NCBI RefSeq assembly: GCF_963921235.1
Contig: NC_086097.1
Span: forward strand, 127,412,001-127,476,000
Direction: 5' to 3'
From: Mobula hypostoma
Taxonomy: Eukaryota
DNA length: 64,000 nucleotides
Shown here piece after piece: positions 3,065 through 64,000 of this stretch; positions within the stretch are counted from its first letter, which is position 1; each line of letters opens with the position of its first letter. The translations under genes and the position numbers were made by a program. Below the pieces are notes generated by a model that saw nothing but the letters and a program-made list of their open reading frames with translations, searched no databases and was not told the DNA's origin.

Positions 3065-3500
3065 GGAAAGGTTCACCAGGATGTTGCCGAGATTGTAGGA
3101 TGTTAGTTGTGGGAAGAGCTTAGACAGATTGAATTTGTTTTCCCTGCAGGCCAAGGGGTGAAGTATCTAAGAGTAGGAAAAGCATATTTGGAGCAGATGG
3201 TTTTAATCTTTTTCTTTCATGATAGGAGTATCAAAACAAAATGCTTAAGGTTAGAGGAATGATTTTTAAAGGGAATCTGAGGAGTAATTTTCTTACACAA
3301 AGTGGTTGATATCTGAAACATGCTGCCAGAGGAGGGGGTAGAATCAGATATAATTATCCCCTACAGACAGATTTAGAAAACACTAACATAGTTAAGGCAA
3401 AGAGGGATATTGCTGTAATGATGGCAAATAGGACTTACGCAGATGGACAAAATGATCAACGTGAATGCAATGGGATGAAGAACCCATTTCTGTGCTGTGA
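3065..3500 (+). mobile_element. Old CR1-type LINE 3' fragment
   Basis: Degenerate match to the RFTRMLPG..ERLDRLxLFSL..FFTQRVV tail shared by the other CR1 copies in the window. Confidence 0.65.
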
Positions 3501-3799
3501 CAATGAAGTTCAGTACTCAGCCCACTACATATATTACTCCTTCATGAAATGAGGATGTCACTGACAAGGCCAGTAATTACTTACCCTCAGTTGTTGCCCT
3601 TGAGACAGTGGTGGTGAGACACTTCAATAAACCACTGCGGTCATTGTATTCTGGAAATTCTCACCAATTCGTATCCTGGTTTGATAATGTGCTTTGTTAC
3701 AACTGAATGCTATTCCAGAAAGCCGATAACTCAACCACCTTGATGGTCTGGAGGGCGATGCCTTAGATTTTCTTTCCCAAAGGACGTTGGATTATAAAA

Positions 3800-4450
3800 A
3801 CAAGAAAATCGGTAGATGCTGGAGATCCAAAGCAACACATTCAAAATGCTGGCGAATCTCAGCAGGTCAGGCAGCATCTATAGAGAGGAATAAAGGGGTG
3901 ACATTTTGGTTCGGGACTCTTCTTCAGGACTGAGAAGGAAGGGGAAAGATGCCAGAATAAAAAGGTGGGGGGAGGGGAAGGAGGCTATTTGGATGGTGAA
4001 AGGTGAAGCCAAGTGGGTGGGAAAGGTCAAGGGCTAGAGAAGAAAGAATCTGATAGGAGAGGGGAGTAGAGCATAGGTGAAAGGGAAGGAGGAGGGGACC
4101 CTGGGGGAAGTAATAAGGCAAGTGAGAAGATGTAAAAGGTCAGAATGGGGAAAAGAGGAAGGGGGTGGGATTTGTTTACCAGAAGGAGAAATTGATATTC
4201 ATGCCATCAGATTGGAGGGTGCCCAGACAGAATATAAGGTGTGCATTCTTCACCCTGAGGGTGGCCTCATCTTGGCACGAGAAAGCCATGGGCCAACACA
4301 TCAGAACGGGAATCGGAATTAAAATGTTCGGCCACCTGTAGTCTCGTTTGTAGTGGATGGCGCTGAGGCGTCAACGTAGTGGTCCCCCAGTTTACGACAG
4401 GTCTCACCAGTGTACAGGAGGCTGCATCAGGAGCACTGGACACACCAGAC
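3800..4450 (-). mobile_element. Older Penelope-like element 3' fragment (GIY-YIG end and pLTR)
   Basis: Similar to the reverse complement of 23880-24590 (catgccatcag.ttggagg..cccagac..aatataaggtg), with a degenerate hammerhead region at about 3895-3932. Confidence 0.8.
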
Positions 4451-7400
4451 ACAGCAGTTTTAAAGATATCATACTGTCTTTGTCCGGTCTTATCCTTGTT
4501 TGATTTTTAGTTGCTCAGTGGCAGGTTTGAGATTCCTGACTGCTTGTGTCATGGTCTGGTACAGTAATTGGAATGTGTAGGAACGTAGAAACTGCAGAAG
4601 GTGGTAGCCTCATCCATTACAGGCACATCCCTCCCTACCATCAGAAGTATTGAAAGAAGGCAACAACCAGCTTCAAAGATCCCACTAGCTGGGCCAAGGT
4701 TTCTTCAGAGACTTGGGCAGGAGGTACAGAAACCTTAAGTCCCACATCACCAGCTTCATGAACAATTGGTTTCAGCCACTTGGTTCTTCAGCAAACTGGC
4801 ATAACCCTAATGACTACCTTGGTATAGCAATACCATGTCCTCTAGGATTACTTTCCAATAAAATGGACTTTGTATTTTGTTGTTCTTATAGTGTTCTTTC
4901 CTGAATAAGTATGTATAATTAGTTTTGTTCTTATTTTGATTGCTGCTTATATGATACCATGTGGCTGAGATGCTGCAGCAAATTCACCTTTCGTTCCACC
5001 TGTGTGGACGCATGTTTATTGCCAAATGCACAACTATATCTTTGTTTCCAGTTCTTTACTCCAGGCTTCTGGATTATATAACCACCATGTGACTCTTTCC
5101 TGAAGTTTGGCAGCATCTCTGAAGCAGTGTTTGAAGGACCGATTCTCTGAGAGTGGAATGAACCTACAGGGTTCATGGTTCTTAGACTTTGCTCAAACCG
5201 AATTCTGTGATGGCAGCTCATTTCCAACACACTGAAAGGCTAAGAAGGAATTTGAATCATCATTTTACACAATTAAAAACACAAGCTAATAAACAACCAA
5301 CATTGACACAGGGCTCAGCTTAAGACTTTGAAATGTTGGATTCAGTTTGTGTTCCTTCCTTTGTTTTCCTGGTTTTGTTTTATTACAACAAAACTGGCAC
5401 TTTTCCTCCATAAGCTTAATTATAAATTTCCGGATTCCTCAATTGTTTGTTGACTTTATGTATGGTTACTTGGCATACACATATGACCATCACAAATTCT
5501 TCTGAAAATGCATTAACTCTTCTTGCCCTATTAATCCATAACTGCTTTGCTGACCTACATCGACAGGGTTAAACTCCATTTTGATGTTAAATTATTCACT
5601 GAATTTTCTAAACTCTCCCCACATACAAACCCCTATCACTGTAATCACCTCCAGCCCTTTAACCCTTTAGGATATAGGCACTCCTTTAATTCTGGCCTCT
5701 TACTCCCCTTCGCACAAAATTTCCTTACCATTGCTTTCAACTTTGCTTCCAGTAACCAAAGAACTCCCAACCAAGACTTTTCCACCATTTGTCTCTCTCC
5801 TTAACACACTTGTTTTAGCCCTTCCCTTTTACCAAGTTTATGGCTTTCCACCATCAGCATCATTTTTTCGCCATAAAAAGTCTTGCAATATTTGTAAGGG
5901 TGTTCTATAAATGGAAGAGCTTGTTGTGAGGGCTTCAGAAATGTAGCAACAGATACAATCAGGGCAGCCATATTGGTGAATGTAATCATGTGACACAATG
6001 TAACATATGAGCACTTTTTCTGGATACCAAGTAATAAATATCTAAAAGGCGTAACATAGCTTGGATTTATTGGCTTTGAACATTCCCCATGATTGGATGA
6101 ACCTGTTATGGAAGTGTGGATTCTATTAATCTTGGGCCTCCCAATTTTTCATCTAAGCTGTGAGATCCAACAAGGCTTCAGGGGTGACTAGGCAGCAGGA
6201 GGTTCTCTGCTGTACACTGAATATCTTTGAATATTCTGATAGCCTGAGACAGAAGTCAAAGGTATAGGAATCATATTTTGATTGACTCTGTTAGCCAGGC
6301 ACATTGATAAGCCCATAAGATTGAAATAATTTTAACACATCACTAAAACATTAAAAACAAATGGCTAACAAATCATTTCAAACACTTAAAATAAAGTAAA
6401 TTAATTCCAGTACCTCCCTGCATTTACCTATCAGTACAAAGTAAGTGACCATGTTCAGCTGAATAGAACTATTATTCCTGCGCCAGCACTCGCCTGGTGT
6501 AGAGCTGGTGATGGTGGGTGGGGACAGGAGCGAAGTGCATCCTGAAATTCCAGAGAGCTGTGGACACAGCTCTGTCCACGAGATACAATCTTACCTGCAT
6601 GAACTCTGTCTACACTTCTCACTGCCTCAGAAAAGCAGCCAAAGTAATCAAAGACCACTTCCCACTCCAGCCATTCTCTCTTCTCCCTGCTTCCATCAGG
6701 TAGGAGATACAAAAGTTTGAAAACACGTGGCACCAGGCTCAAGGACAGCTTCTGTGCTGCTATTATAAGATTATTTGATGGCCCTCTTGTACGTTAAAGA
6801 TGAACTCTTAAGCTCAGAATCTTCTTCATTATGGACCTTGCACTTTATTGTCTGCCTACATTGCACTCTCTCTGTATCTGTCATACACTATACTGTATCT
6901 TGTTATTACCTTTCACTTTGTACTAACTCAATGTGCTTATGTTTTGAAATGATATACATGGAAGGCTTGAAAAACTAATCTTTTCAGGGTATCTTAGCAC
7001 ACATGAAAATAATCAAGCCTTCCAACACATTTTTTGGGGATGTGGGATGTAATTGAAACTCCCAGGGAAAACCCACCACATCACATTTTTGGGATGTGGG
7101 AGATAGTTGAAGCTCCTGGGGGAAACCTGCCCAGTCACATTTCCAAATAAGAGCCTTGGAAATGTTTTTGTTTGTCTATTTCTCGGGGTGTGAGGGTTAT
7201 TAACAAGGACAGCACTTACTGCCAATCCTTCAGTTCCCCTGGTACATGTGGTTTGCTACGTTACTTTGGAAGTCAACCATACCAGTGTGGATCTGGAATC
7301 ACATACAGCTGAGGTAAAAGCAACAGATTCCACCGCCCCCATGAAAGGCTTCAGTGAGCCAAATAAGTTCTATAACAATCTAATGTTTTTGTGGTCCTAG

Positions 7401-13846: not shown

Positions 13847-14872
13847 CAGTCGACCTTCACTAATCCGACTACCTGTAATCCGGTTCCTTCGATAATCCGG
13901 CACTGATTTCAAATTTTCCGCGCAACTGTAATTTCAAATTTCCTGGGCCACCGTACCAATCTGCTGCATATTGTTTTGGTTGCGCTAGATCTGTTCACGT
14001 GTTGGCGCACTCTTGTAAGCACAGACAGACGATTCCTGCTTGTTTTCCTGCATGTATTAATATCATTTGCGTGGGGTGTGGCTGCCTGGCACCCGCCCAT
14101 CTCACCCGCCAGCAGCGGGGGAGCTGGTGTGCGCTGGGCCAGACTGCCTTCTCGCCCGCCTGCCGGCACTCGCACACTGCCCTCTGGCGTAGCACGGCCG
14201 GTGCTCCGTTCTCTTCTGCCTACGACCTCAGATCAGACATGGTGACCCACTGAATTTAAGCATATTACTAAGCGGAAGAAAAGAAACTAATGAGGATTCC
14301 CTCAGTAACTGTGAGTGAAGAGGGAAGAGCCCAGCGCTGAATCCCCGGCCGCCTGGCGATCACGTGAAATGTGGCGTATAGAAGACCTCCTTTCTCCAAC
14401 TTCTGCTTCCGCTCACCCAGATGTGCTGCCACCAACATCAACAGTTTTTTGAAGAAACTGTTGCGCCAGTTTCAGCAGTTCCTGATGCTTCACTCATTTT
14501 TCAAGACAAAGATGTTGGTGATCCTGACAACCCCACACTTGCAGACATGCAACTTTGCCTGAAGGTATATTAAACATCTCACTTTAGAAGCCGAAGTGCT
14601 CAACTGTTCTGTACAAGTTAATTCCTGTACATTTACCTATACCCTTTATTTAATCTGTGCCTGTACAGTATATTACTTCATTAAAATTTCACTTGCTACT
14701 CATTTACTATTTCTGTTTCATTATTATCCAATTTGTACCGATTTACATGATATTTTAAAGGTATGATGAGGCGGTTAGCTATTGCTTGATGTGATCCTTC
14801 TATAATTCGGCATTTTCACTAATCTGGCACTCCTCAGGTCCCAATGGTGCCGGATTATTGAAAGTTGACCTG
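13847..14872 (+). mobile_element. Non-autonomous pogo/Tigger-like DNA transposon carrying an rDNA fragment
   Basis: Imperfect TIRs CAGTCGACCTTCACTAATCCG / CGGATTATTGAAAGTTGACCTG. TA target duplication at 13845-46 and 14873-74 restores the LINE sequence tcagtatatcct. Subterminal taatccgg repeats. Confidence 0.85.
14223..14387 (+). pseudogene. 28S rRNA 5'-end fragment, preceded by GC-rich ITS2-like sequence (about 14070-14222)
   Basis: CGACCTCAGATCAGAC..GACCC.CTGAATTTAAGCATATTACTAAGCGGA.GAAAAGAAACTAA..AGGATTCCCTCAGTAAC..GAGTGAAGAGGGAAGAGCCCAGCGC.GAATCCC is the conserved LSU 5' end. Many differences are CpG to TpG/CpA, so it is probably non-functional. Confidence 0.95.
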
Positions 14873-21490: not shown

Positions 21491-22708
21491 ATAAGTAATT
21501 AAATAATTAATACTGAGAGCATGAGTATGACCAATATTCTTCACTCAGCTTTTTGCCATAACCAGTCTCCAGTTCTTACTGGAAATTGCAAGCCACAATC
21601 AGTTTGAATTTAGAGGCACAGCTTTGCAAAGTGAAGTGATTAGGAGACTTCTTATCAGTATTAGCCAAACACAAGACAATGGGGTTACATCACTTAGCAC
21701 ATCAAACATGGTTACAAGTTGGAATGTTTGTGTACACAGAGGGCCAGCCCTCTCAGCATTAATTGTGGATCTTTGGGATCTCTGTCATCAGAATCTATTA
21801 AGACACGTGTTTGAGCTACATTGTCCCAGCAAAGGTATCTGGGAAACAACTTATGCAGATTATGTCATCTTGTCGAAAATAATGTAAATATTAGAAGTAC
21901 TGGGGATTGTTAGGAGTGACAAGGTGCATGACAGAAAGAAGAACTAGAATTCATTCCTCAACTTCCCGTTTATGCAACGGATAACTCATTCATCTACAAC
22001 TCATTGGTATGTTCTTTTAGTTCGTAAGAATTGTACCAGTGTTCAGAAAACCTTAATAGTTTTTGTAAATCTTTTGTAATTTGAATATCTTTTATAAACT
22101 AGAAATCTTCTGTGACTGTTAAATGTGCGTGGAGAATTATTTGTCTAAATTTGAACATGTATCATTAAAAATAAAATAACCATGTTTAAACTACTTCATT
22201 GGCCGGAAGTATCTCCTGATTGGTAAGGAGGGGGGACCCATCAGTCAGCACTGTCTATTAGCAGTTAAACTTCACTAGACAGGGATGTAAATTAATCTTT
22301 GAAGATTAGGTTGATATAGTACAACCTCCCTATAGTGAGGGTACCTATAGATATCAATATTGAATAGGGCTTAAAATCTCCTTTTGAGTTTAGGGCTTTG
22401 CAGACAGAGAACCCAATACCATCAGAAGTTCAGGGTTGACGTGAGTGAAGTTAACCACATTGGTTCAGAAGCCTGATGGTTGAAGGATAATATCTGTTCA
22501 TGAACCTGGTGGTGTGGGACCTAAGACTCCTGTACCTACCTCCTAATGATAGCAGTGAGAAGAGAGCATGGACTTAGATCAGTGGTTCCCAAAGTGGGCG
22601 ATATAGTCCCCCTAGGGGTGGTGGGAGTTTCTAAGGGGACAATAAAGATAAAGTGGATGGTGGGGGGAGATGCTTGGTAATAAGAGGGTGAAGCAGAGGG
22701 ATACAGAC

Positions 22709-24595
22709 TTATCCCCCCTTGTTCAATCCCTTCCTACCTATGTTCGTGACACTTCTCACGCTCTTAAACTTTTCGATGATTTTAAGTTCCCTGGCCCCCA
22801 CCGCTTTATTTTCACCATGGATGTCCAGTCCCTATATACTTCCATCCCCCATCAGGAAGGTCTCAAAGCTCTACGCTTCTTTTTGGATTCCAGACCTAAT
22901 CAGTTCCCCTCTACCACCACTCTGCTCCGTCTAGCGGAGTTAGTCCTTACTCTGAATAATTTCTCCTTTGGCTCTTCCCACTTCCTCCAAACTAAAGGTG
23001 TAGCTATTGGAACCCGTATGGGTCCTAGCTATGACTGCCTTTTTGTTGGCTTTGTGGAACAATCTATGTTCCGTGCCTATTCTGGTATCTGTCCCCCACT
23101 TTTCCTTCGCTACATCGACGACTGCATTGGCGCTGCTTCCTGCATTGACTTTATTAACTTTGCCTCCAACTTTCACCCTGCCCTCAAGTTTACCTGGTCC
23201 ATTTCTGACACCTCCCTCCCCTTTCTAGATCTTTCTGTCTCTGTCTCTGGAGACAGCTTATCCACTGATGTCTACTATAAGCCTACTGACTCTCACAGCT
23301 ATCTGGACTATTCCTCTTCTCACCCTGTCTCTTGCAAAAACGCCATCCCCTTCTCGCAATTCCTCCGTCTCTACCGCATCTGCTCTCAGGATGAGGCTTT
23401 TCATTCTAGGACGAGGGAGATGTCTTCCTTTTTTAAAGAAAGGGGCTTCCCTTCCTCCACTATCAATTCTGCTCTTAAACACATCTCCCCCATTTCACGT
23501 ACATCTGCTCTCACTCCATCCTCCCGCCACCCCACTAGGAATAGGGTTCCCCTGGTCCTCACCTACCACCCCACCAGCCTCCGGGTCCAACATATTATTC
23601 TCCGTAACTTCTGCCACCTCCAACGGGATCCCACCACTAAGCACATCTTTCCCTCCCCCTCTCTCTCTGCATTCCGCAGGGATCGCTCCCTACGCAACTC
23701 CCTTGTCCATTTGTTCCCCCCATCCCTCCCCACTGATCTCCCTCCTAGCACTTATCCTTGTAAGCGGAACAAGTGCTATACATGCCCTTACACTTCCTCC
23801 CTTACCACCATTCAGAGCCCCAAACAGTCCTTCCAGGTGAGGCAACACTTCACCTGTGAGTCGGCTGGGGTGATATACTGTGTCCGGTGCTCCCGATATG
23901 GCCTTTTATATATTGGCGAGACCCGATGCAGACTGGAAGACCGCTTTGCTGAACACCTACGCTCTGTCCGCCAGAGAAAGCAGGATCTCCCAGTGGCCAC
24001 ACATTTTAATTCCACATCCCATTCCCATTCTGACATGTCTATCCACGGCCTCCTCTACTGTAAAGATGAAGCCACACTCAGGTTGGAGGAACAACACCTT
24101 ATATTCCGTCTGGGTAGCCTCCAACCTGATGGCATGAACATCGACTTCTCTAACTTCCGCTAAGGCCCCACCTCCCCCTCGTACCCCATCTGTTACTCAT
24201 TTTTATGCACACATTCTTTCTCTCACTCTCCTTTTTCTCCCTCTGTCCCTCTGAATATACCTCTTGCCCATCCTCTGGGTCCCCCCCCCCCGTCTTTCTT
24301 CCCGGACCTCCTGTCCCATGATCCTCTCGTATCCCCTTTTGCCTATCACCTGTCCAGCTCTTGGCTCTATCCCTCCCCCTCCTGTCTTCTCCTATCACTT
24401 TGGATCTCCCCCTCCCCCTTCAACTTTCAAATCCCTTACTCAATCTTCCTTCAGTTAGTTCTGACGAAGGGTCTCGGCCTGAAACGTCGACTGCACCTCT
24501 TCCTAGAGTTGCTGCCTGGCCTGCTGCGTTCACCAGCAACTTTTATGTGTGTTGCTTGAATTTCCAGCATCTGCAGAATTCCTGTTGTTTGCGTT
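22709..24595 (+). mobile_element. Penelope-like element, 5'-truncated (RT, GIY-YIG, pLTR)
   Basis: Open frame to 24163 with RT motifs (TMDVQSLYTSIP, GVAIGTRMGPS, LRYIDD) and GIY-YIG endonuclease (GVIYCVRC..LYIGET..RFAEH). Pyrimidine-rich 3' region with a hammerhead motif. Confidence 0.95.
24457..24492 (+). ncRNA. Minimal type I hammerhead ribozyme in Penelope pLTR
   Basis: AGTT-CTGACGA-AGGGTCTCGGCCT-GAAA-CG-TC-GACT: intact core, short stem II, palindromic ACGT in place of stem III. Predicted cut after 24488. Confidence 0.8.
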
Positions 24596-26021: not shown

Positions 26022-26908
26022 AAAAATCAAAACAGTGATAATTTGCATGCTGCATACAACATTTCATTGCTTATTGCTAAATCTGGAAGCCAGATACAAT
26101 TGGAGAAGAACTGATTCTGCCAGCAGTAAGGGAGGTTCTAAATACAGATTTGCAGAAGTCACTAAACCAAATAACTAAAGCAATTCCACTCAGTGACACT
26201 CTGTTCAAAGACAAATAGATGAAAAGTCTGAGAATATGGAAGAAACATTGTGCAACATACAGAGGACAACAGAATTTGCTTTGCATTTGGACGAGTCAAA
26301 TTTGGCAGCAAAGAATCTTTGCCTTATGGTTCAAGAGTTGTTATTTACAAGGGAAATATAAACAGATACAAAGAGAGAGTCAATATTTTGGATTGTTGAG
26401 CCATTTTTCAAAGAGAATGACATTCTGCTCACCAACATTCTTGCTTGTGCAACAGATGGGGTTGCCACCGTGGGGTTAATACTTTCTTGGAAAAAAGCTG
26501 TTGCTAACATACTTACCATTCACTGTGTAACGCTGCGCAACTCTCCCTCACTTAAATCCAAATCACTAGCTAGTCTCGACACCATCATAATGGTGTCAAG
26601 GTCTTCATCGATGCCAATGATGGATGAACAACAACATAACACATACTCACAGATAACATATCGTCACAAGAAAACCCAAGTGATCAGTTGCACAAATGCT
26701 GTTATCACAACAGTAAATAAAATCAAGTCCTATGCTCTCAATTCTTGACTATTTCGAGAGCTTTGTATTGAGAAAGATGAACTGTTCGAACACTTGCTGT
26801 TGCACACAGAACTCAGGTGGTTTTCAAAAGGAAACTGGCTAAGATGCTTCTGTGCGCTTTTTGAAACTGATAAGATTCTTTGAAGACTCGAATGCTTCAT
26901 TTAATAAT

Positions 26909-28565
26909 CAAGTTTAGCCTCCAAGTTCAGGGTGAGGTCATCCCTTTCATCGAAGATTACCCGATAAAATGCTTGGGGAAGTGGTTTAATGTGTCACTAA
27001 CAGATGGGGCCAATGTCACCAATGCTGTGAAGCAGACAGACGAACGGCTGAAGAAGATCAACAAATCCAGACTTCCCGGTAAATTCAAGACCTAGCTGTA
27101 CCATTACGGCCTTCTGTCCAGGCTTCTCTGAGTCTTCACACTTCATGAGTTCCCCATGACTGCTGTAGAGGGCATCGAGAGGAAAACCAACAATCACCAG
27201 CTTCTCTTCAGTGGGCCTTTACATTCGTTCTGGGTAACTGCAGCTTCCCCTGTCGTTTGTTGTGGAGGAATTCAAGGTGGCAAAATGCAGAGCCTTATTA
27301 AGCTTGAGAGATTCCAGTGACGTCTTGGTAAAGCAAGCAGTCGTTACAACCAGATCTGGGTGCAAGTGGGCAGCCAACACAGCTGTGGAGCAGGCAGTGT
27401 GTTCTCTGAAGCTGTGAGATATCATCAGCAACTCCTGCGTCGAGTGGCAAGGCCTCGGCTCAGTTCACTTCCAGCAGTGGGGAAACGCAAGCATAAGGAA
27501 CAGGTGAGACATGGTACAGGCAGAAGTACGGATCCGTGAGGAAGAGAAGGGGATGTCAAAGGCAGTGGAACAAGGGTCCCAGGGCGCCTGGACAAAATGG
27601 GATCTGCCTAAGTGCAAGATCTCATAGGCAGAGTTATGGAGACTGGAGCCCTTCCATATTTCCTTCCTCTTGCGATCAGTGTATGATACCCTGCCTTCAC
27701 CATTACATCTGTACTCATGGGGGATGAGAGCGGACCCGAACTGAAAGCTCTGTGGTCAAAAGTGGACACTGGCTCATATACTGTCCAGGTGTAAAACAGC
27801 TGTAACTCAAGGACGGTATGGGTGGTGCCATGATAAGGTGCTTCTGGCTGTTGCTGACACACCAGAGTGGGAGAGATGCAAGAAGAGGGCGGCTGGCACA
27901 GATTTGAGGAAGACCATCACCTTCATCAAGGAGGGAGCCAGGCTTTTCGTAACCAAACAATCTGCTGCTAACGGCCAGGTCCTGGGAGATGAGGGTCGAT
28001 GTGGGAAGGAGGCTGCAGTTCCCGGATGTGGTGTACACAACCCTACGCCCGGACATTGTACTGCGGTCAACTGAAAACAAGAAAATAATTCTGGTTGAGC
28101 TGACTGTGCCGTGGGAGGAGGGATGGGAAGAGGCCCACGAGAGAAAGGCCTTGAAGTACCAGCCCTTACTGCAGGAGTGTAACGAGAAGGGATGGCAGGC
28201 ATGGTTGTTCCCTGTGGAGATCGGCTGCAGAGGTTTCCCAGCCAAATCAGCATGGCGGTTGTTGTCAGATCTGGGCGTGGACGAAAGGAGCAAAAAACAA
28301 GCAGATCGTAGGATGGGGAAGAGGCAGAATGAGCCTCTTGCTGGATTTGGAGTAGGTGAGAGGAGGGAAGCTGGAAGCCAGGAGCAGATGGGCAGTGATT
28401 TGGCCACCACTGCCGGCCCACCAACTGGAGAGTGTCATGGTTAAGGGTCGAAAACACTCTGAGAAGGTTGGGAGCCACCCGATGACATTTGCTCCTGGCT
28501 GAAGGCTACAGTTACTTTATAAGGTATCTGGAGAATGCACCCGAACAGGTGTATGTAACAAGTAA
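26909..28565 (+). mobile_element. HERO-like RLE non-LTR retrotransposon, upstream 5'-truncated copy
   Basis: Colinear with about 30445-32115. Contains RT thumb (KCLGKWF) and RLE (LRPDIV..ILVELTVPWEE..KALKY..FPVEIGCRGF). Multiple stops. Confidence 0.9.
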
Positions 28566-31500
28566 TCTCTGTTTTGTACCAGTGGCTTCCAGGAAAGACT
28601 GGATGGCAACCGAGGAAGGTCAGTGACGCTGGAGAGACAGCTGACCTCCAGGAAAGACTGGTACGGGCTCACAAGGCTAGCAACCTTGTGGGCAGCACTC
28701 GCAAGAGGGAACCACTCAAGCTACGATTGAACACAAAGAGCAATACCCTCAGAGTCTCCTGAGAGGGAGGGGAGAGGATGAGAGACGCAACAGGATGAGA
28801 GATGGCCAGGACAGGAAACACAACTACAAGGAAGCTAAAGCAAACAACACTGACTGGAGAGGAATTCACAGTAAGGTGTCATTGCAGGAAAGTCTGCAAA
28901 AACATCAGAGGGCTCAAGATACACCAGAGCAAATCTAGATGTGGATCAATGGTGACCCAAGTGCAGCACATGGACTTGGTGTCCAGTGAGACGAAAGAGA
29001 ATTCCAGCCAGGAAGCATCCCACAGAGCTGAAGATCTCTCCGCACTCGAGTCGCCTCAGCACCGAACAACAGACCAAGTGAGTTCCTCTTTGGCTACCCC
29101 AATCCATTCATCAAGGAAAGGCAGGATCAAATGGCCTAGATCGTCAGACAACGTCACCTGGATGCAACCAAATAGGAGGGAAAGGGAGGTTCGTCGCTTG
29201 AGAGGTGAATTACAGACGCTCAACAAGAGGTTTAAAACCAGCTCACCGGCCGAAAAAGTGCCCTCTTAACCAGCATGTTGTGGGAAAAGCTGTGCAAACT
29301 CTGGAGGGCGGAATATCTACGACAGCAAAGAGGGAAGAAAGAGAAAAGGGGAGCGCAGTTTGTGAGAGATCCATTCAGTTTCACCAGGACTCTTCTCAGC
29401 CAACAAAAATCTGTTATACTATCCAGCTCAAAGCCAGAGGTAGAGGAGTTCCTGTGGGAGGCACACAGTGACCCATGGAGGGATCGGGACTAGGAACCAA
29501 TGGGCCTGTGCGAAGACCGGAAAAACCATCAAATGAGCTGAATGTGAAGGAGCCTACGTGGCAGGAAATCCAGGACATCATCCGTAAAGCTAAAGCATCA
29601 GCTGCCCCAGGCCCAAGTGGCCTACCTTATAAGGTGTATAAGAAATGCCTAAAACTTCTTCGGAGGCTGTGGAAGGTCATGAGAAAGATCTGGGCCAAAG
29701 GTACTATTCCATCAAGTTGGAAATTGGCAGAGGGATGCTTTATTCCAAAGGAAGAGGATTCTTCTACAATTACTCAGTTTAGGATAATTTCTCTCCTGGA
29801 TGTGAAATGTAAGTTTTTCATTTCTGTGCTCGCAAGAAGGCTGATTTCTTACATGACACAGAACTGCTATATCAACACATCCATCCAGAAAGGCGGTATT
29901 CCAGGCTTTTCGGGGTGTCTGGAACACACCTCAATGATTAGCCATTTGATCAGTGAGGCCAAGCAGAAAAAAGGCAACTTAACAGTTGTCTGGTTAGACC
30001 TTGCGAGCGCCTACGGGTCTATTCCACATGACCTCATCCTAGAAGGACTCGACCACTACTATATCCCAGTGGCTATTCCAGACATGATCACCAGCTACCT
30101 GGGAGGATTCCAACAGATTTACATCAGCCCATTTCACAACTAGGTTGGCAGGACCTCCAGAAGGGGATTCCAACAGGGTGCACCATCTCCCCCACCCTAT
30201 TTATTATGGGAATGAACCTCCTACTATCAGCAGCAGAAGATGTAACCCGCGGCCCGACGTTGGAGTCGGGCATTGTTCAGCCGACTCTACGAGGGTTCAT
30301 GGACGACATCACTATAACAACTCTGGCACATGTCCAAGCAAGATGGGTATTGGAATCCCTGGATAATGTAGCCACTTGGGCGAGGATGTCCTTCAAGGCC
30401 AAGAAGTCCAGGTGCATGGTGATCAGAAAGGGCAAAGTTACTAGCAAGTTTAGCCTCCAAGTTCAGGGTAAGGTCATCCCTTCCATCGAAGCTAACCCGA
30501 TAAAATGCTTGGGGAAGTGGTTAAATGTGTAATTGACAGACGGAGCCAATGTCACCAATACTGTGAAGCAGACAGACGAATGGCTGGAGAAGATTGACAA
30601 ATCAGGATTTCCTAATAAATTCAAGACCTGGCTGTACCAATACGGCCTTCTGCCCAGGCTTCTCTGGCTCTTCACACTTTATGAGTTCCCCATGACTGCC
30701 GTACAGGGCATCGAGAGGAAAACCAACAAACACTTGCGGAGATGGTTGGGAGTTCCCCCAAGCTTCTCTTCAGTGGGTCTCTATATTCGATCTGGGCAAC
30801 TGCAGCTTCCCCTGTCATCTGTTGTGGAGGAATTCAAGGTGGTAAAATGCAGAGCCTTATTAAGCTTGAGAGATTCCAATGATGACTCGGTAAAGCAAGC
30901 AGGTGTTACAACCAGATCTGGGTGCAAGCGGGCAGCCAACATAGCTGTGGAGCAGGCAGTGTGTTCTCTGAAGCTGTGAGATATTATTGGCAACCCCTGC
31001 ATTGGGCGGCAAGGCCTCGGCTCAGTTCACTTCCAGCAGTGGGGAAATGCAAGCATAAGGAACAGGCGAGACATGGTACAGGCAGAAGTACGGATCCGTG
31101 AGGAAGAGAAGTGGATGTCAAAGGCAGTGGAACAAGGGTCCCAGGGTGCCTGGACAAAATGGGATCTGCCCAAGCGCAAGATCTCATGGGCAGAGTTATG
31201 GAGACTGGAGCCCTTCAATATTTCCTTCCTCTTGCGATCAGTGTATGACACCCTTCCATTGCCATTCCATCTGTACACATGGGGGATGAGAGAGGACTCG
31301 AACTGTAAGCTCTGTGGTCAAAAGTGGACACTGGCTCATATACTGTCCAGGTGTAAAACAGCTCTCACTCAAGGATGGTATGGGTGGTGCCATGATAAGG
31401 TGCTTCTGCCTGTTGCTGATACACTAGAGCGGGAGAGATGCAAGAAGAGGACGGCTGGCACAGACTTGAGAGAGAGCCAGGCCTTTCGTAACCAAACAAC

Positions 31501-32227
31501 CAAAGCCCAATCTGCTGCTAACGGCCAGGTCCTGGGAGATGAGGGTCGATGTGGGAAGGAGGCTGCAGTTCCCGGATGTTGTGCACACAACCCTACGCCC
31601 GGAAATTGTACTGTGGTCAACTGAAGACAGGGAGTAATTCTGGTTGAGCTGACTGTGCCATGGGAGGAGGGATGGGAAGAGGCCCACGACAGAAAGGCCT
31701 TGAAGTACCAGCTCTTAATGCAGGAGTGCAAAGACAAGGGATGGCAGGCATGGTTGTTCCCTGTGGAGATCGGCTGCAGAGGTTTCCCAGCCAAAGCAGC
31801 ATGACGGTTGTTGTCAGATCTGGGCCTGGATGAAAGGAGCAAAAAACAAGCAACTTGTAGGATGGGGGAAGAGGCAGAACGAGCCTCTTGTTGGATTTGG
31901 AGTAGGCGAGAGGAGGGAAGCTGGAAGCCAGGAGCAGATGGGCAGTGATTTGGCCACCACTGCCGGCCCACCAACTGGAGAGTGTTGTGGTTAAGGGTCG
32001 AAACACTCTGTGAAGGTTGGGAACCACCTGATGACATCTGCTCCTGGCTGAAGGCTACAGTTACCTTATAAGGTATCTGGAGAATGCACCCTAACAGGTG
32101 TATGTAACAAGTAATCTCTGGTTTGTACCAGTGGCTTCCAGGAAAGACTGGATGGCAACCGAGGAAGGTCGGTGACACTGGAGAGACAGCTGACCTCCAG
32201 GAAAGACTGACAGGTGTACGTAACAAG
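28566..32227 (+). mobile_element. HERO-like RLE non-LTR retrotransposon, near full-length copy plus terminal redundancy
   Basis: Frameshifted single ORF from about 28802 to 31948: N-terminal zinc finger CHCRKVCKNIRGLKIHQSKSRC; RT (AAPGPSG, QKGGIPGFSGCLEH, WLDLASAYGSIPH, GCTISP, FMDD); CCHC CKLCGQKWTLAHILSRC; RLE domain; stop in ..KPGADGQ*. Clade assignment is from motif recall. Confidence 0.9.
31926..32049 (+). ncRNA. Candidate non-circularly permuted (pseudoknotted) hammerhead ribozyme; second copy at 28376-28500
   Basis: Core CTGATGA (32028-34) and GAAA (32000-03). Stem III AGAGTGT/ACACTCT, stem I GTGGTT/AACCAC, stem II GGCCC/GGGTC, 15-bp outer stem. The GTC triplet is retained in the 28434-36 copy. 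Confidence 0.7.
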
Positions 32228-33514
32228 CAGAAATGACATTGCTTATTTGTCAGAATTATTCGCAAAGTTTAATGAAATCAGTTTTCAATCGCTAGGAAAT
32301 GAAGTGTACCTTGTCAATGTCAAATCCATCATCTCCACATTTCTGTCCAAGTTAACCCTATTCAAGTGCAACATTGGCCATTGCAACCTTTTCCAATTTC
32401 CGAACTTCTCGCACTTGGAAGAGAAAAAAAAGAGTACTAGGTGATCATCATCAAGAATACTGAGCCCACCTGGGAGAGCTGCATCAAGACATGTCAGGGT
32501 GATTTCAGGATCTTCTCTTTATCAGAATTCCAGATTGGATAATAAATCCATTCTTCCACACTCTTCCATAATCCATTCTTCCACATTCTTCCATAAATCC
32601 ACACTTGAAATGAGGAACCAACAGGAAGGATGGAGTTAGAACTGATCTTGCTACGAAATGACTTTGAGCTGAAGCTGAGCTACAAAAAGCCATATCAAGA
32701 CTTTTGGTTGCAGAAAGAAACCCCTGATCCTGCACTGTGGAAAAAGGTCAAGATGCTCCTTATGCCTATCCAACATCGTACTTAGTGGAGTGTGGTTTCA
32801 GTGCGGTTGCCAACATCTTTCAAAGCAATGAAACAGACTGGAAATTACTGAGTGTGGGGAACTGAGACGCCATCTGAGTGACAGTCAGCCTGATGTTGGG
32901 AAACTACTATCACTGCACCAAGCCTATCCATCTCATTGAAAGGTGAAAGAGCAATGAAGTAGTGAATAGTTGGACTGCTAATGTACGCTCTAAAATTGTT
33001 TACCATAATTTAATAAAGAAACAATTTTATTTGCAGCTTTAAATAGATTTGAATATTTTTGCAATGATTTAGGAGGTGACAAAGGGCTGCACATGATAGA
33101 ATCTGATGGGAGAGGAAAGTGGAGCATGGAATCAAGCAAGGGAAGTGGGGTAGGCAGATGAGAACTTCCATCTGTTCCTCATTCCGACATTGGCAGACAC
33201 TTGCACAGGGAGTTGCACACTCATAGTAATCAGCTTTAGCCTTGGTTGCTGTGATGAGCTCAAGGTTTCTGCTGCATCTCATCCCTCCCAGTAACTCAGA
33301 CAGGCTGTCTACTTAAACAAGGCAAGAGCCACTTGACGACCTATCAGCAGCAGACACATCCTATGCTATAGGCAAACCTTTTCCGCATTTTCAGCAGGAT
33401 TTTGGTCAGAATCACTCAGCGGTTGAAAAACGTTAGCCTAATTCCAACTTCAGCACATCAACCAACTCACTCACAGGAAAGAGATTTTCAACCAGACTTC
33501 TGCTTTCAAACGTC

Positions 33515-33890: not shown

Positions 33891-34507
33891 AAGTGGTGCA
33901 ATTTTCTTTTTCCATTGTATCTAAATTTCTGATTCTGGGTGGAGCATAAGTTAAGTTCAGGGAACAGATTAAGCCAGCTTGCATCTGTGAAGGTAGGCAG
34001 ACTTTTTTTGTAATCCTGGCAACAAAGGTCTAAGACATCATCGGAGGACAAGAAGGGGGACTAACAACAATGAATTTCAACAAGAGATAGTATTACAGAG
34101 TCATAGAGCACAGAAACAGGCCCTTCAGCCCATTGCTTCCGCACCAACCTATACAAATCCCTTTTTTCATCTGACATCCTATCGACTCCCCTCTAATTTC
34201 CCTCAACCATCTGGAGACAAGGAGTACTTTACAGTGCCAATTACACTACCTCAACCTGCACATCTCTGGGATGTGAAAGGAAACTAGAGTACTGTGCAGG
34301 AAACCCACACAGAAACAGGATGAACATGTAAACTCCACACAGTCAGGAACTGAGGTTAGGATTGAACATGAGTCACTGGAGCAGTGAGCCATCAAAAGAG
34401 CAAGAGTATTTTTATTACATTAACTTACATAAATGTCAGCACCTAGGGAATCTGCTTATCTCACTTTCCCAAACCCCTTTTCACCAAACCCCTATCTGCA
34501 TAATCCT

Positions 34508-36315
34508 AGCAACACACATCAAAGTTGCTGGTGAACGCAGCAGGCCAGGCAGCATCTCTAGGAAGAGGTACAGTCGATGTTTCAGGCCGAGACCCTTCGT
34601 CAGGACTAACTGAAGGAAGAGTTAGTAAGAGATTTGAAAGTGGGAGGGGGAGGGGGAGATCCAAAATGATAGGAGAAGACAGGAGGGGGAGGGATGGAGC
34701 CAAGAGCTGGACAGGTGATAGGCAAAGGGGATATGAGAGGATCATGGGACAGGAGGCCCAGGGAGAAAGACAAGGGGGTGGGGAACCCAGAGGATGGGCA
34801 AGGGGTATATTCAGAGGGACAGAGGGAGAAAAAGGAGAGTTAGAGAAAGAATGTGTGTATAAAAATAAATAATGGATGGGGTACGAGGGGGAGGTGGGGC
34901 ATTAGCAGAAGTTAGGGAAGTCGATGTTCATGCCATCAGGTTGGAGGCTACCCAGACGGAATATAAGGTGTTGTTCCTCCAATCTGAGTGTGGCTTCATC
35001 TTTACAGTAGAGGAGGCCGTGGATAGACGTGTCAGAATGGGAATGGGATGTGGAATTAAAATGGGTGGCCACTGGAAGATCCTGCTTTCTCTGGTGGACA
35101 GAGCGTAGGTGTTCAGCAAAACGGTCTCCCAGTCTGCGTCGGGTCTCGCCAATATATAGAAGGCCACATCGGGAGCACCGGACGCAGTATATCACCCCAG
35201 CCGACTCACAGGTGAAGTGTTGCCTCACCTGGAAGGACTGTCTGGGGCCCTGAATGGTGGTAAGGGAGGAAGTGTAAGGGCTTGTATAGCACTTGTTCCG
35301 CTTACAAGGATAAGTGCTAGGAGGGAGATCAGTGGGGAGGGATGGCGGGGACGAATGGACAAGGGAGCTGCGTAGGGAGCGATCCCTGCGGAAAGCAGAG
35401 GCGGGGGGAGGAAAAGATGTGCTTAGTGGTGGGATCCCGTTGGAGGTGGCGGAAGTTATGGAGAATAATATGTTGGACCCGGAGGCTGGTGGGGTGGTAG
35501 GTGAGGACCAGGGGAACCCTATTCCTAGTGGGGTGGCGGGAGGATGGAGTGACAGCAGATGTACGTGAAATGGGGCAGATGCGTTTGAGAGCAGAGTTGA
35601 TGGTGGAGGAAGGGAAGCCCCTTTCTTTAAAAAAGGAGGACATCTCCCTCGTCCTGGAATGAAAAGCCTCATCCTGAGAGCAGATGCAGCGGAGATGGAG
35701 GAATTGCGAGAAGGGGATGGCATTTTTGCAAGAGACAGGGTGAGAAGAGGAACAGTCCAGATAGCTGTGAGAGTCAGTAGGCTTATAGTAGACATCAGTG
35801 GATAAGCTGTCTCCAGAGATAGACAGAAAGATCTAGAAAGGGGAGGGAGGTGTCGAAAATGGACCAGGTAAACTTGAGGGCAGGGTGAAAGTTGGAGGCA
35901 AAGTTAATAAAGTCAACGAGTTCTGCATGCGTGCAGGAAGCAGCGCCAAGGCAGTCGTTGATGTAGCGAAGGAAAAGTGGGGGACAGATACCAGAATAAG
36001 CTTGGAATATGGATTGTTCCACAAAGCCAACAAAAAGGCAGGCATAGCTGGGACCCGTACGGGTTCCCATGGCTACACCTTTAGTTTGAAGGAAGTGGGA
36101 GGAGCCAAAGGAGAAATTATTAAGAGTAAGGATTAATTCCGCTAGAGGGAGCAGAGTGGTGGTAGAGGGGAACTGATTAGGTCTGGAATCCAAAAAGAAG
36201 CGTAGAGCTTTGAGACCTTCCCGATGGGGGATGGAAGTATATAGGGACTGGACATCCGTGGTGAAAATAAAGCAGTGGGGGCCAGAGAACTTAAAATCAT
36301 CGAAAAGTTTAAGAG
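34508..36315 (-). mobile_element. Penelope-like element, 5'-truncated and frameshifted
   Basis: Near-identical reverse complement of 22761-24555. ORFs 35795-36193 (RT) and 34902-35795 (GIY-YIG). Hammerhead at 34572-34607. Confidence 0.95.
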
Positions 36316-60879: not shown

Positions 60880-63235
60880 CATAGAACACTATAGCACAGA
60901 AACTGACCCATCGACTCTGTGCTGAACTGTTATACTGCCTAGTTCCATCAACCTGCACCTAATCATAGCCCTCCATAACCCACCCATCCACCTTTCTCTT
61001 AAGTATTGAAACCCAACCCAGATTCTCCACTTCCACTGGCAGCTTGTTTCACACTCTCACCACTGTGAATGAAGAATTCTCCCTCGGGTTCCCCTTGAAT
61101 ATTTCACCTTTCACCCTTAGCCTATGACCACTAATTCTAGTCTCACCCAAATTCTCTCCGCACTCTTTCAATCTTATTGATCTTTCCTGTAGGTAGGTGA
61201 TCGGATCTACACATAATACTCTAAATTAAGGTTCACCAACATCTTATTCAACTTCAACATAACATCCCAACTTCTAAACTCAGTACTTTGATTTATGAAG
61301 GCCAATGTGCCAAAGCCTCTCTTTACGACATTATCTACCCGAGACACCATGTTAAAGCAATTATGAACCTGTATTCCCATATCCCTTTGTTCTACCCCAT
61401 TCCTCAGTGCCCTGTTCACTTGTAGTCCTACCCTAGTTTGTCCTCCCAAAGTGCAACAGCTTATAATTGTCTGCATTAAATTCCACCTGCCATTTTTCAG
61501 CCCATTTTGCCAGTTGGTCCATATCCTGCTGCAAACTTTGATAGTCTTCCTCACTGTCCACTATATCCCTAACCTCGTTGTCATCCACAAATTTGCTGAT
61601 CCAGTTAACCACATTATCATCTAGATCGTTGATATAGATGACAAACAACAGTGGACCCAGCACACCACCAGTCACAGGCCTCCAGTCTGAGAGGCAACCA
61701 TTTACAACCATTCTCTGACTTCTCCCATAAAGCCAATGTCGAGTACTATTTACTACTTCATCCTGAATGCAAAGCAACTGATCCTTCTTGACAGCCTCCC
61801 ACCTGGGACCTCATCAAAGCCTTGCTAATGTCTGTGTAGATAATATCCAATGCCTTTCCTTCATTAACTTTCCCAGTAATATCCTTAAAAGACTCTGTAA
61901 GATTGGTTCGACACAACACGTTGACTGCCCCTCATCAGGCTCTGTCTATCTAAATGCTTATAAATCTGGTTCTTTAGAATACCTTCCAATAATTTACCCA
62001 TTACAAATGTTTGGCTCAGCATCCTATAATTTGCTGGCTTATTCGAAGAGCCACTCTTGATCAACAGAACAGGTTTATCAATCCTCCAGTTCTCCAGCAC
62101 TTCGCTCATGGCTAAGGATATTTGAAATATCTCTGCTAGGGCCCTTGCAATTTCTGCATTAGTGTCCCACATGGCAAAAGGGAGACCTTGTCAGGCTCTG
62201 GGGATTTATCCACCCTAACGTGCTTCAAGACAGCAAGCACCTCCTCTGTAATCTATATATGGTCCAAGATCTCACTGCTGTTTTGCCTCAGTCTATCGAC
62301 TCTGCGTCTGTCTCCCCGGCAAATAGAGATGCACAAATCTATTTATGATCTCCTCAGCTGTTTCGGTTCTATGAAGAGATGACCACATTTTTCTTCACGA
62401 GGACCAATTTTTCCCTTGCTATCCTTTTCCTTATAGTATCTCCAGAAACCCTTAGATTCTCCTCCACCTTGTCTGCCAGAGCAACCTCAAACCTTCTTTT
62501 ATCCCTCCTGATTTCCCTCTTAAGTCTTCTCTTGCTTTTCTTATACTCAAATACCTCATTTATTCCTGCCTGCCCATACCCGCTATGCACCTCCTTCTTT
62601 TCCTTAACCAGGGCCTTAATATCTCTTGAAAACCAAGGTTTCCAAAACCCGTTTGGCTTTCCTTTTATTCTAACAAGAACATGCAAACTCTGTACTCTCA
62701 AAATTTCACTTTTGAAGGCATCCTACTTACCAATTATGCCTTTTCCAGAAAACAACCGGTCCCAATCTTTGGTCTTTCGCCAGTTTAGAATCTCAACCTG
62801 AGGACCAGACCACTCCTCCCTAATTACCTTAAAACTAATGGAATTATGATCACTAGACCCAAAGTGTCTCCTTACAAAGCGTCTTCTGTCACTTGTCCTG
62901 CCTTGTTCCCTAACATTGATCCAGTATCACACTTTTTGTAGTTGGGACCTACATTCTGTCCCGGCTAAGAGCTGTGTGACATTTTCTTTGACTAGTAATG
63001 CTACACCCACCACCCCCGCCCAACCCCTCCAGGCTAACATGTCTAAAACAATGGAGCCCAAAAACACTGAGCTGCCGGTCCTACCCCTCCGACAACCAAG
63101 TCTCAGTAATGGCTACAATGTCATAATTCCACGTGCTGAGCCATGCTCTAAGCACATCCGCCTTACCTACAGAACTCTTGGCATTGAAATAGACACAGCT
63201 CAGAACATTATTCCTATCCTGCTCAACTTTTGACT
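60880..63235 (-). mobile_element. CR1 LINE ORF2 remnant (APE to RT)
   Basis: YFNAKSSVGK..YDIVAITETWL (APE), KPWFSRDI, VLGPLLFVIYINDLD..KFVDD. Confidence 0.85.
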
Positions 63236-64000
63236 CAAACAACAGGAATTCTGCCGATGCTGGAAATTCAAGCAACATACATCAAAGTTGCTGGTGAACG
63301 CAGCAGGCCAAGCAGCATCTATAGGAAGAGGTGCAGTTGACGTTTCAGGCCGAGACCCTTCGTCAGGACTAACTGAAGGAAGAGTGAGTAAGGGATTTGA
63401 AAGTTGGAGGGGGAGGGGGAGATCCAAAATGATAGGAGAAGACAGGAGGGGGAGGGATAGAGCCGAGAGCTGGACAGGTGATAGGCAAAAGGGGATACGA
63501 GAGGATCATGGGACAGGAGGTCCGAGAAGAAAGACAAGGGGGGGGGGTTGACCCAGAGGATGGGCAAGAGGTATATTCAGAGGGACAGAGGGAGAAAAAG
63601 GAGAGTGAGAGAAAGAATGTGTGCATAAAAATGAGTAACAGATGGGGTACGAGGGGGAGGTGGGGCCTTAGCGGAAGTTAGAGAAGTCGATGTTCATGCC
63701 ATCAGGTTGGAGGCTACCCAGACGGAATATAAGGTGTTGTTCCTCCAACCTGAGTGTGGCTTCATCTTTACAGTAGAGGAGGCCGTGGATAGACATGTCA
63801 GAATGGGAATGGGATGTGGAATTAAAATGTGTGGCCACTGGGAGATCCTGCTTTCTCTGGCGGATAGAGCGTAGATGTTCAACAAAGCGGTCTCCCAGTC
63901 TGCGTTGGGTCTCACCAATATATAAAAGGCCACATCGGGAGCACCGGACGCAGTATGTCACCCCAGACGACTCACAGGTGAAGTGATGCCTCACCTGGAA
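63236..64000 (-). mobile_element. Penelope-like element 3' end (runs off the window)
   Basis: GIY-YIG ORF 63668-63994, nearly identical to the copy at 23.8-24.6 kb. Hammerhead at 63335-63370. Confidence 0.95.

Follow-up and report, generated by a model that had tools for sequence, protein, structure and literature searches.

A head-to-tail HERO-like LINE insertion in the genome of Mobula hypostoma with a predicted rewired hammerhead and a possible Penelope-like cycle

Introduction

Penelope-like elements occur as partial head-to-tail tandems with a hammerhead in the repeated end and no poly(A), and a circular template has been proposed for their more-than-unit copying, along with reverse transcription that begins internally and with a short tail at the terminus (PMC4209133; PMC11167929; these and the papers below are cited from partial text). 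We describe an insertion of parallel layout in a different kind of element, a HERO-like long interspersed nuclear element (LINE) with a restriction-like endonuclease (RLE), at positions 26909-32227 of a 64,000-nt stretch of Mobula hypostoma DNA (NC_086097.1, positions 127,412,001 to 127,476,000, forward strand; the whole stretch is called the window). Its reverse transcriptase (RT) and endonuclease are of the R2/RLE type, whereas Penelope-like elements combine a telomerase-like RT with GIY-YIG, and its ribozyme-like fold is large, self-contained and pseudoknotted, unlike their minimal dimeric type I hammerheads.

Described members of the HERO clade (HEROFr, HEROTn, HERODr) have, as here, one open reading frame (ORF) that contains an RT, a C-X2-C-X7/8-H-X4-C knuckle and a PD..D RLE, and no fixed target, and the relatives of the present element occur in fish, lancelet and molluscs as those of the clade do (PMC4640811, PMC3636483, PMC2790886, PMC9004415). 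The accessible parts of these papers mention no ribozyme, tandems or terminal redundancy, and an N-terminal Cys/His motif, reported absent in HERO (PMC2790886), is present in these proteins. R2 would be alike in that an RLE LINE processes a longer transcript by a self-cleaving RNA, its 5′ ribozyme resembling that of hepatitis delta virus (HDV) (PMC6765202, PMC6795142); the class and position of the ribozyme differ, since the fold described here stands just past the stop codon, and there is no ribosomal DNA target here. No link of HERO to hammerheads or tandems was found in the literature searched, which also included PMC7650587, PMC13580325, PMC5678591 and bioRxiv 10.64898/2026.07.22.740005; outside this search lay most subscription journals, as well as Repbase Reports and the original HERO paper, either of which could mention terminal repeats.

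The hammerhead most similar to the present fold is type SGC (HRIMA-1; Eckert et al. 2023, PMC10085705). Both have the block order cut site, GAAA, CUGAnGA, a short linker between stems I and II, one more helix by which the remaining strands of these two stems are connected, and the core bases. Stem II has its 5′ strand upstream of the cut here and after CUGAnGA in type SGC, and A9 here runs into a separate helix that closes a four-way junction, unlike in type SGC. As far as the accessible text of PMC10085705 goes, the SGC RNAs came from metatranscriptomes and none from the genomes of known organisms, in contrast to the animal retrotransposons considered here; they cut slowly (0.007-0.19 per min), and the CUGAnGA-stem II block was assumed to be one that cannot be split.

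Results

Layout of the insertion and its integration site

The insert consists of a 5′-truncated unit A and a unit B, after which come another leader, the third, and 18 nt that repeat the family 3′ end (Table 1). It is a decayed one-and-a-half-unit head-to-tail HERO-like LINE, most likely made in one reverse-transcription event on continuous tail-to-leader RNA. There is, in our judgement, about an even chance that it arose through a Penelope-like cycle with a rewired hammerhead as predicted. The stretch 26909-28660 is repeated directly at 30445-32209 with 89.8% identity (blastn; Kimura two-parameter distance 7.3%), and no further copy of this repeat was found within the window.

A first-pass annotation, made from the letters alone, had placed the start of the insertion mid-RT, and the left end indeed falls in the RT thumb region (residue ~640-650 of P0013). 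Its other statements on layout held as well: a period of 3550 bp, which separates the two predicted cut sites; a second passage through the ribozyme with a repeated leader, which lies at 32112-32209; and units that follow each other without host DNA, in an insert ending in neither poly(A) nor a simple repeat. The permuted right end that it proposed did not stand, as the last 18 nt (32210-32227) match 32094-32111 apart from one change and are the family's normal 3′ terminus.

The flanking transposase is presumably hAT-like, judging from its resemblance to that group; its reading frame resumes beyond the insert, and Pfam gave no match on the pieces of it that were tested. Contigs of other copies of this transposon supplied the empty site, relative to which about 11 bp of target were lost, with a 3-nt microhomology at the left edge and no target duplication. 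The insert passes the predicted cut twice without a scar, and both tail-to-leader junctions in the window are identical.

Table 1. Positions (in the window) of the parts of the insertion, the predicted RNA fold and the flanking transposase
Feature	Position	Strand	Remarks
Decayed hAT-like transposase, left part	26070..26908	+	start approximate; from reading frame and empty-site contigs
Unit A, 5′-truncated: RT thumb, CCHC knuckle, RLE domain, ribozyme-like fold, 3′ end	26909..28562	+	
Ribozyme-like fold, copy A	28376..28500	+	predicted cut 28436/28437
Short spacer and leader array (five small hairpins, loops rich in purines)	28563..28660	+	conserved across families
Unit B: leader, 5′ untranslated region (UTR), single ORF, ribozyme-like fold, 3′ end	28563..32111	+	decayed
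Ribozyme-like fold, copy B	31926..32049	+	core intact; predicted cut 31986/31987
Copy B helix e	31926-31940/32035-32049	+	
Copy B hairpin h	31941-31964	+	
Copy B stem II	31965-31969/31995-31999	+	
Copy B helix b	31971-31976/32015-32020	+	
Copy B stem III	31979-31985/32003-32009	+	
Copy B stem I	31987-31991/32023-32027	+	
Copy B GAAA; CUGAUGA	32000-32003; 32028-32034	+	
Normal family 3′ terminus (TGTAT + ~8 nt), inferred reverse-transcription start	32094..32111	+	from depth drop and fixed 3′ ends of relatives
Third leader, hairpin array only	32112..32209	+	3 changes relative to the first
18-nt repeat of the family 3′ terminus, outer insert end	32210..32227	+	
hAT-like transposase, right part	32228..32940	+	end approximate

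Element identity and coding region

Unit B has a single ORF with an N-terminal Cys/His motif, an RT, a CCHC knuckle and a PD-(D/E)xK RLE; its stop is at 31946-31948, and its start is uncertain, with homology beginning at 28673. Pfam matched RVT_1 and zf-RVT in the element, and its best PDB matches, the nearest solved structures, are R2 proteins. This architecture is that of the RLE (R2-group) non-long-terminal-repeat retrotransposons and bears out the RLE-clade LINE of the first-pass annotation. A telomerase-like RT with GIY-YIG, as in Penelope-like elements, was not found in it, GIY-YIG being present only in the neighbour at 22652-24160, whereas a Penelope-style partial tandem whose repeated ends hold a hammerhead-like core is present.

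Among known proteins, those most similar to it come from Pimephales (76%), Epinephelus (79%), lancelets and molluscs. The RT is 50% identical to Danio BAC82600.1, which we take to be HERODr; no paper was found for this accession in the literature searched. As in HERO, there is no fixed target, since varied flanks follow the fixed 3′ ends of other copies and this copy sits inside a hAT-like element; a minor insertion preference for the element's own leader may exist. We therefore classify it as a HERO-like RLE LINE, a name given by similarity rather than by a tree with labelled references.

For comparison, relatives were taken from a metagenome scan in which 394 stretches were confirmed, and the best 80 of these 394 gave 68 loci (numbered L below). 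The full unit claimed by the first-pass annotation is present as unit B in decayed form: 3 stops interrupt its compared part, its frame is shifted in places, and against the closest relative, L030, its ORF lacks 150 bp at 29163, so that an intact unit would measure about 3.7 kb. Unit A has 9 stops within its compared part. Despite this decay, the window element retains 78% DNA identity to L030 and 76-79% protein identity to teleost copies (P0001, P0002). Horizontal transfer of the element is possible on these sequence comparisons.

A predicted hammerhead with an apparently new strand order

The RNA fold was searched with a descriptor that required the order cut site, GAAA, CUGAnGA together with an upstream stem II. 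This gave 34 matches, namely 32 in the loci, copy B and an AT-rich match on the minus strand of the window that was dropped as spurious, leaving 33 genuine ones, while each of five shuffles of the 327,792 bases gave 0. A profile search detected 47 whole or partial copies of the fold in 43 of 69 records. The alignment used below has 28 rows, consisting of 23 descriptor matches and 5 copies that failed the descriptor; 10 other matches (cut, near-duplicate or long-linker forms) were left out.

From 5′ to 3′ the fold runs through e′, hairpin h, the 5′ strand of stem II, b, a stem III strand, the cut, a stem I strand and a short linker, and then through the 3′ strand of stem II, GAAA, stem III, b′, stem I, CUGAnGA and e. 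Its six helices are 93.7% paired, compared with 35-43% in slid controls, and 34 of 39 pairs are changed on both sides. This percentage is inflated because stems I-III were partly used to select the rows, although both sides of their pairs still show different letters from row to row. Three helices (e, h and b) played no part in selection and also exceed shuffles, and helix e reaches at least 6 bp in 23 of 29 cases against 13% in controls.

Stems I, II and III of a hammerhead are thus supported by covariation, and the core (CUGAnGA, GAAA, A15.1-U16.1, NUH triplet, G10.1-C11.1) is present, intact in copy B and mutated in copy A. G10.1, G12, A13, A14, A15.1, C3, G5, A6, G8 and A9 are invariant in all 28 rows, N7 and N17 vary, and N17 is other than G in 27 of 28 rows (35 of 38 without the filter). 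Stem II is supplied by the upstream strand and covaries; its G10.1 does not vary, and its C11.1 is found in 26 of 28 rows. When the published SGC register of stem II was applied, 0 of 27 were paired at 10.1-11.1 and 51% overall, no better than shuffles.

In copy A, U4 is changed to C and GAAA has an extra A, so this copy is predicted to be inactive. The cut triplet GUC, reported by the first-pass annotation, is that of copy A with its mutated core; copy B has GUU, as have the close relatives L005, L022 and L030. The two cut sites (28435-28438 and 31985-31988) differ as if an ancestral CpG had decayed on opposite strands, which would make GUC the ancestral triplet.

The hammerhead motif named by the first-pass annotation therefore stands as a core with covarying stems, but not as a classical permutation: the circular, pseudoknot-free order of types I-III is not found, and Rfam returned nothing relevant for the fold at gathering and E-value thresholds. 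Plain minimum free energy folding, which misses pseudoknots, gave no special stability. In our model, the fold is the SGC circle opened between A9 and G10.1 and closed by helices e and h as a four-way junction; these two helices abut without an unpaired base in most rows. The hammerhead core has a defined geometry with a metal site at A9/G10.1, and a stacked four-way junction that keeps A9 on the 10.1-11.1 pair could still let the core form. Taken alone, the fold is quite probably a hammerhead ribozyme with a seventh connectivity. This strand order was not found described in the literature searched, as far as the accessible text goes.

The predicted cut is spanned by four helices (e, II, b and III), so that a monomer cut on both sides (28437-31986) could pair its two ends with each other again, for which -31 kcal/mol is predicted compared with -6 for shuffles.

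In one distant family (43%) the fold is retained and the UTR is longer (L033 2460-2545); in another (42%) no fold was seen (L023 3269-4001). No fold was found after the ORF in L023 and L063.

The leader array

The leader array is 92.3% paired, with 12 of 19 pairs double-changed in 18 rows. Across distant families, the leader (28563-28745 and aligned loci) is more conserved than the surrounding UTR. Each of its five covarying hairpins is followed by a TGAC-like motif, and further hairpins come after them, including one with a GNRA-type loop. A role in protein binding or as a promoter is likely, and the array could serve as a target in the DNA or as a promoter inside the element.

Relation of the two units

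Units A and B differ by 7.3% with independent indels. Relative to L030, unit A has 55 and unit B 45 private changes (p=0.37), which goes against units of different subfamilies, one of the outcomes that the first-pass annotation had set against its own proposal. The differences are spread 42/20/43 over the codon positions with a pN/pS (nonsynonymous to synonymous) of 0.55, within the neutral range of 0.46-1.07. Among the rows listed (40 of 695), and with one minority site omitted, there are 23 polarised sites at which the family majority is not followed by B. At 17 of these A agrees with the family, at 2 it differs from both, and at 4 it agrees with B; of these four shared departures, 3 are CpG. 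In conserved columns, 16 changes are found in A only, 9 in B only and 6 in both. Several of the shared changes also occur in L030 and are family traits, whereas 31382 and 31325 look derived (non-CpG) and hint at a single source copy.

Since the differences are mostly private and neutral-looking, these comparisons fit two copies of one source that decayed side by side after one insertion event. Separate insertions of the same family are possible. Units from different subfamilies and a late local duplication were also considered, and neither fits the pattern of changes.

Junctions, 3′ ends and depth of other copies

Eight loci show an ORF end followed by a new ORF start. There are 44 ORF ends in the loci, of which 34 have a loose core match; 11 of these lead into a leader or ORF, 17 into other DNA and 6 are too short. 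The family's own tail precedes 15 of the 17 aligned locus leaders, and the spacing from TGTAT to the leader is 27-30 nt in all 7 loci in which both were found. Solo copies have a fixed 3′ end at TGTAT + ~8-11 nt (L060/L061, L034/L043/L059, L008, L038, L044). One copy (L066 1290-1360) ends ~7 nt past the predicted cut. In L065, a pair of related elements (1-2946 and 3883-7311) lies back to back, one on each strand.

Contigs of four runs mapped on unit B rise in depth from 1,767 to 80,666 (run X1) toward 32111 and then fall, with a loose contig end at 32112 and the drop past the bin of 32094..32111. No depth step was seen at the predicted cut in the contigs of these runs. The apparent depth of the leader, 2-3 times that of the ORF start, was disregarded because other families can map onto the conserved leader. 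No relatives of the element were found in viral contigs.

The internal reverse-transcription start is inferred from the fixed 3′ end within a continuous junction together with the 18-nt tag. The junction whose invariance the first-pass annotation had made its check recurs before the leaders at the spacing given, and not at those ORF ends that run into other DNA. Monomers with fixed 3′ ends do exist, as its adverse outcome of a unique tandem among monomers foresaw, and the tail-to-leader junction is family-wide.

Neighbourhood in the window

Three Penelope-like copies with RT and GIY-YIG (3.6-5.3% divergent) lie at 22652-24562, 34502-36315 and 63230-64000. They carry minimal hammerhead motifs, and two of them flank the region in inverted orientation. 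An 80-nt fragment of the 28S rRNA 5′ end (14246-14325, Rfam) may be part of a short interspersed element or a retroposed piece.

Discussion

The circular or multimeric RNA proposed by the first-pass annotation gains from the recurrent junction, the same-family units and the cut-spanning helices, and loses from the fixed 3′ ends and from L005. Several further observations weigh against a ribozyme-made circle. The fixed 3′ end lies ~125 nt downstream of the predicted cut and most copies are 5′-truncated monomers, as is also indicated by the depth, which climbs toward the 3′ end as it does for any LINE, here about 45-fold; ends are thus not generally permuted, and copying must begin internally or on uncut RNA. 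Among 28 informative ORF ends, 17 run into other DNA, and for two of the 17 leaders (L001 and L065) the copy opens with the first hairpin, which is what an RNA beginning at that point would give. The joint of 32209 to 28663 seen in four runs is leader into 5′ UTR, not tail into leader, and L002, L004, L015, L029, L035 and L037 prove the junction and not longer-than-unit inserts, because short-read assembly collapses repeats. L005 joins units 68% identical with a crossover in the tail-leader region, which one circle could not produce. The A9/G10.1 break falls outside the rule of PMC10085705, known alignments having no insertion above one or two bases there, and the core insertions listed in PMC3088659 are small ones only, as far as the accessible text goes. 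Finally, the Anolis Penelope element did not need cleavage by its ribozyme in vitro, and RNA ends at the cut were not found; an internal start was shown for its protein, whose main substrate was uncut RNA (PMC11167929).

Several of these points would suit a linear, uncut multimer, in which readthrough transcripts of existing tandems serve as templates, copying begins at a 3′ end that is internal or processed, a real ribozyme trims the 5′ end in the HDV-like manner of R2, or cuts slowly, and no circle forms. The anatomy of the DNA, the fixed 3′ end and the absent depth step at the cut are all accounted for in this way, and the slow rates of type SGC (PMC10085705) and the preference of the Anolis protein for uncut RNA (PMC11167929) agree with it. 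We consider it rather unlikely, given that the same fold would have to cut the upstream copy but spare the downstream one, that an earlier tandem source is required, and that the four cut-spanning helices are left unused. A monomer RNA from leader to 3′ end, with tandems made when the RT jumps from the end of one template to the next or when a copy inserts preferentially just upstream of another copy's leader, is an unlikely source of the insertion. The R2 RT is known to jump between templates, L001 and L065 begin where such an RNA would, the conservation of the leader would suffice for a DNA target, and the heterologous tandem of L005 has its crossover just between tail and leader; L005 is, on the other hand, a single short-read contig and a possible chimera in the conserved leader (its 3426-3806 is a head-to-tail junction of two families, and its unit 1 starts beside a CT microsatellite). 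Near-full-length copies make up a few percent by depth, the upstream unit is no younger than the downstream one, and the window would need three jumps, or three insertions and a deletion, with two identical scar-free junctions.

That the fold is a non-catalytic docking structure for the protein, its hammerhead letters a relic or coincidence, overlaps with the foregoing explanations and appears improbable. The failure of the published SGC stem II, unpaired in all 27 at the core-adjacent position, and the lack of an Rfam match speak for it, but the covarying upstream stem II restores the core (G10.1 and C11.1), the free N7, NUH-restricted N17 and invariant catalytic bases form the pattern expected from cleavage chemistry, and the tandem is left unexplained. 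Least credible, and very improbable indeed, is a local duplication after insertion or an assembly artefact. Four departures from the family majority are shared by the two units among the 23 sites listed, and no read or contig bridging the window's own junctions was found among the contigs of four runs. The X-Y-X layout in element register is nevertheless incompatible with a simple tandem duplication, the changes are mostly private, three of the four shared sites are CpG, the 7% divergence comes with independent indels, and the same junction in unrelated samples goes against an artefact.

We return to copying on continuous tail-to-leader RNA, in which the fold likely cuts the element RNA and so would allow end-to-end copying like that of Penelope elements. 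Copies with an upstream tail stump, or copies in tandem, would be transcribed across two ribozymes, and cleavage would release a monomer (here 28437-31986) that carries the tail 5′ of everything else. The ends of this monomer would be joined by helices e, II, b and III, and the resulting circle would be either ligated or held by base pairs. A simple linear template would be destroyed if RNA were cut efficiently between the ORF and the copy start, yet the fold is kept across distant animals, which suggests that the tail has moved to the 5′ end of a rejoined monomer. The protein would then nick DNA without site specificity, and copying would start internally at TGTAT+8, cross the cut site and usually stop early, giving 5′-truncated monomers. 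Occasional passage of the leader would leave stumps, and a second round would be rare, as in the window. The leader and 18-nt tag at the right end could reflect an early 116-nt slip on a template continuing 3′ of the start site, or alternatively a later deletion of a third unit.

Extended to the HERO-like LINEs of fish, lancelets, molluscs and this genome, the proposal is that they combine a seventh hammerhead connectivity with ribozyme-made circular RNA and an internal start, in an independently evolved cycle of Penelope type. We put this forward tentatively, at somewhat less than even chances. If true, it adds a hammerhead wiring that the 2023 enumeration of permutations excluded by assumption, and a hammerhead other than the circularly permuted ones that is present in many copies in animal genomes and missed by Rfam. 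It would also provide a concrete RNA-processing mechanism for the little-studied HERO clade, and a second, independent test system for the circular-template model of Penelope tandems. RLE proteins are used as gene-insertion tools, for which an internal start and more-than-unit copying, if true, would be of practical interest.

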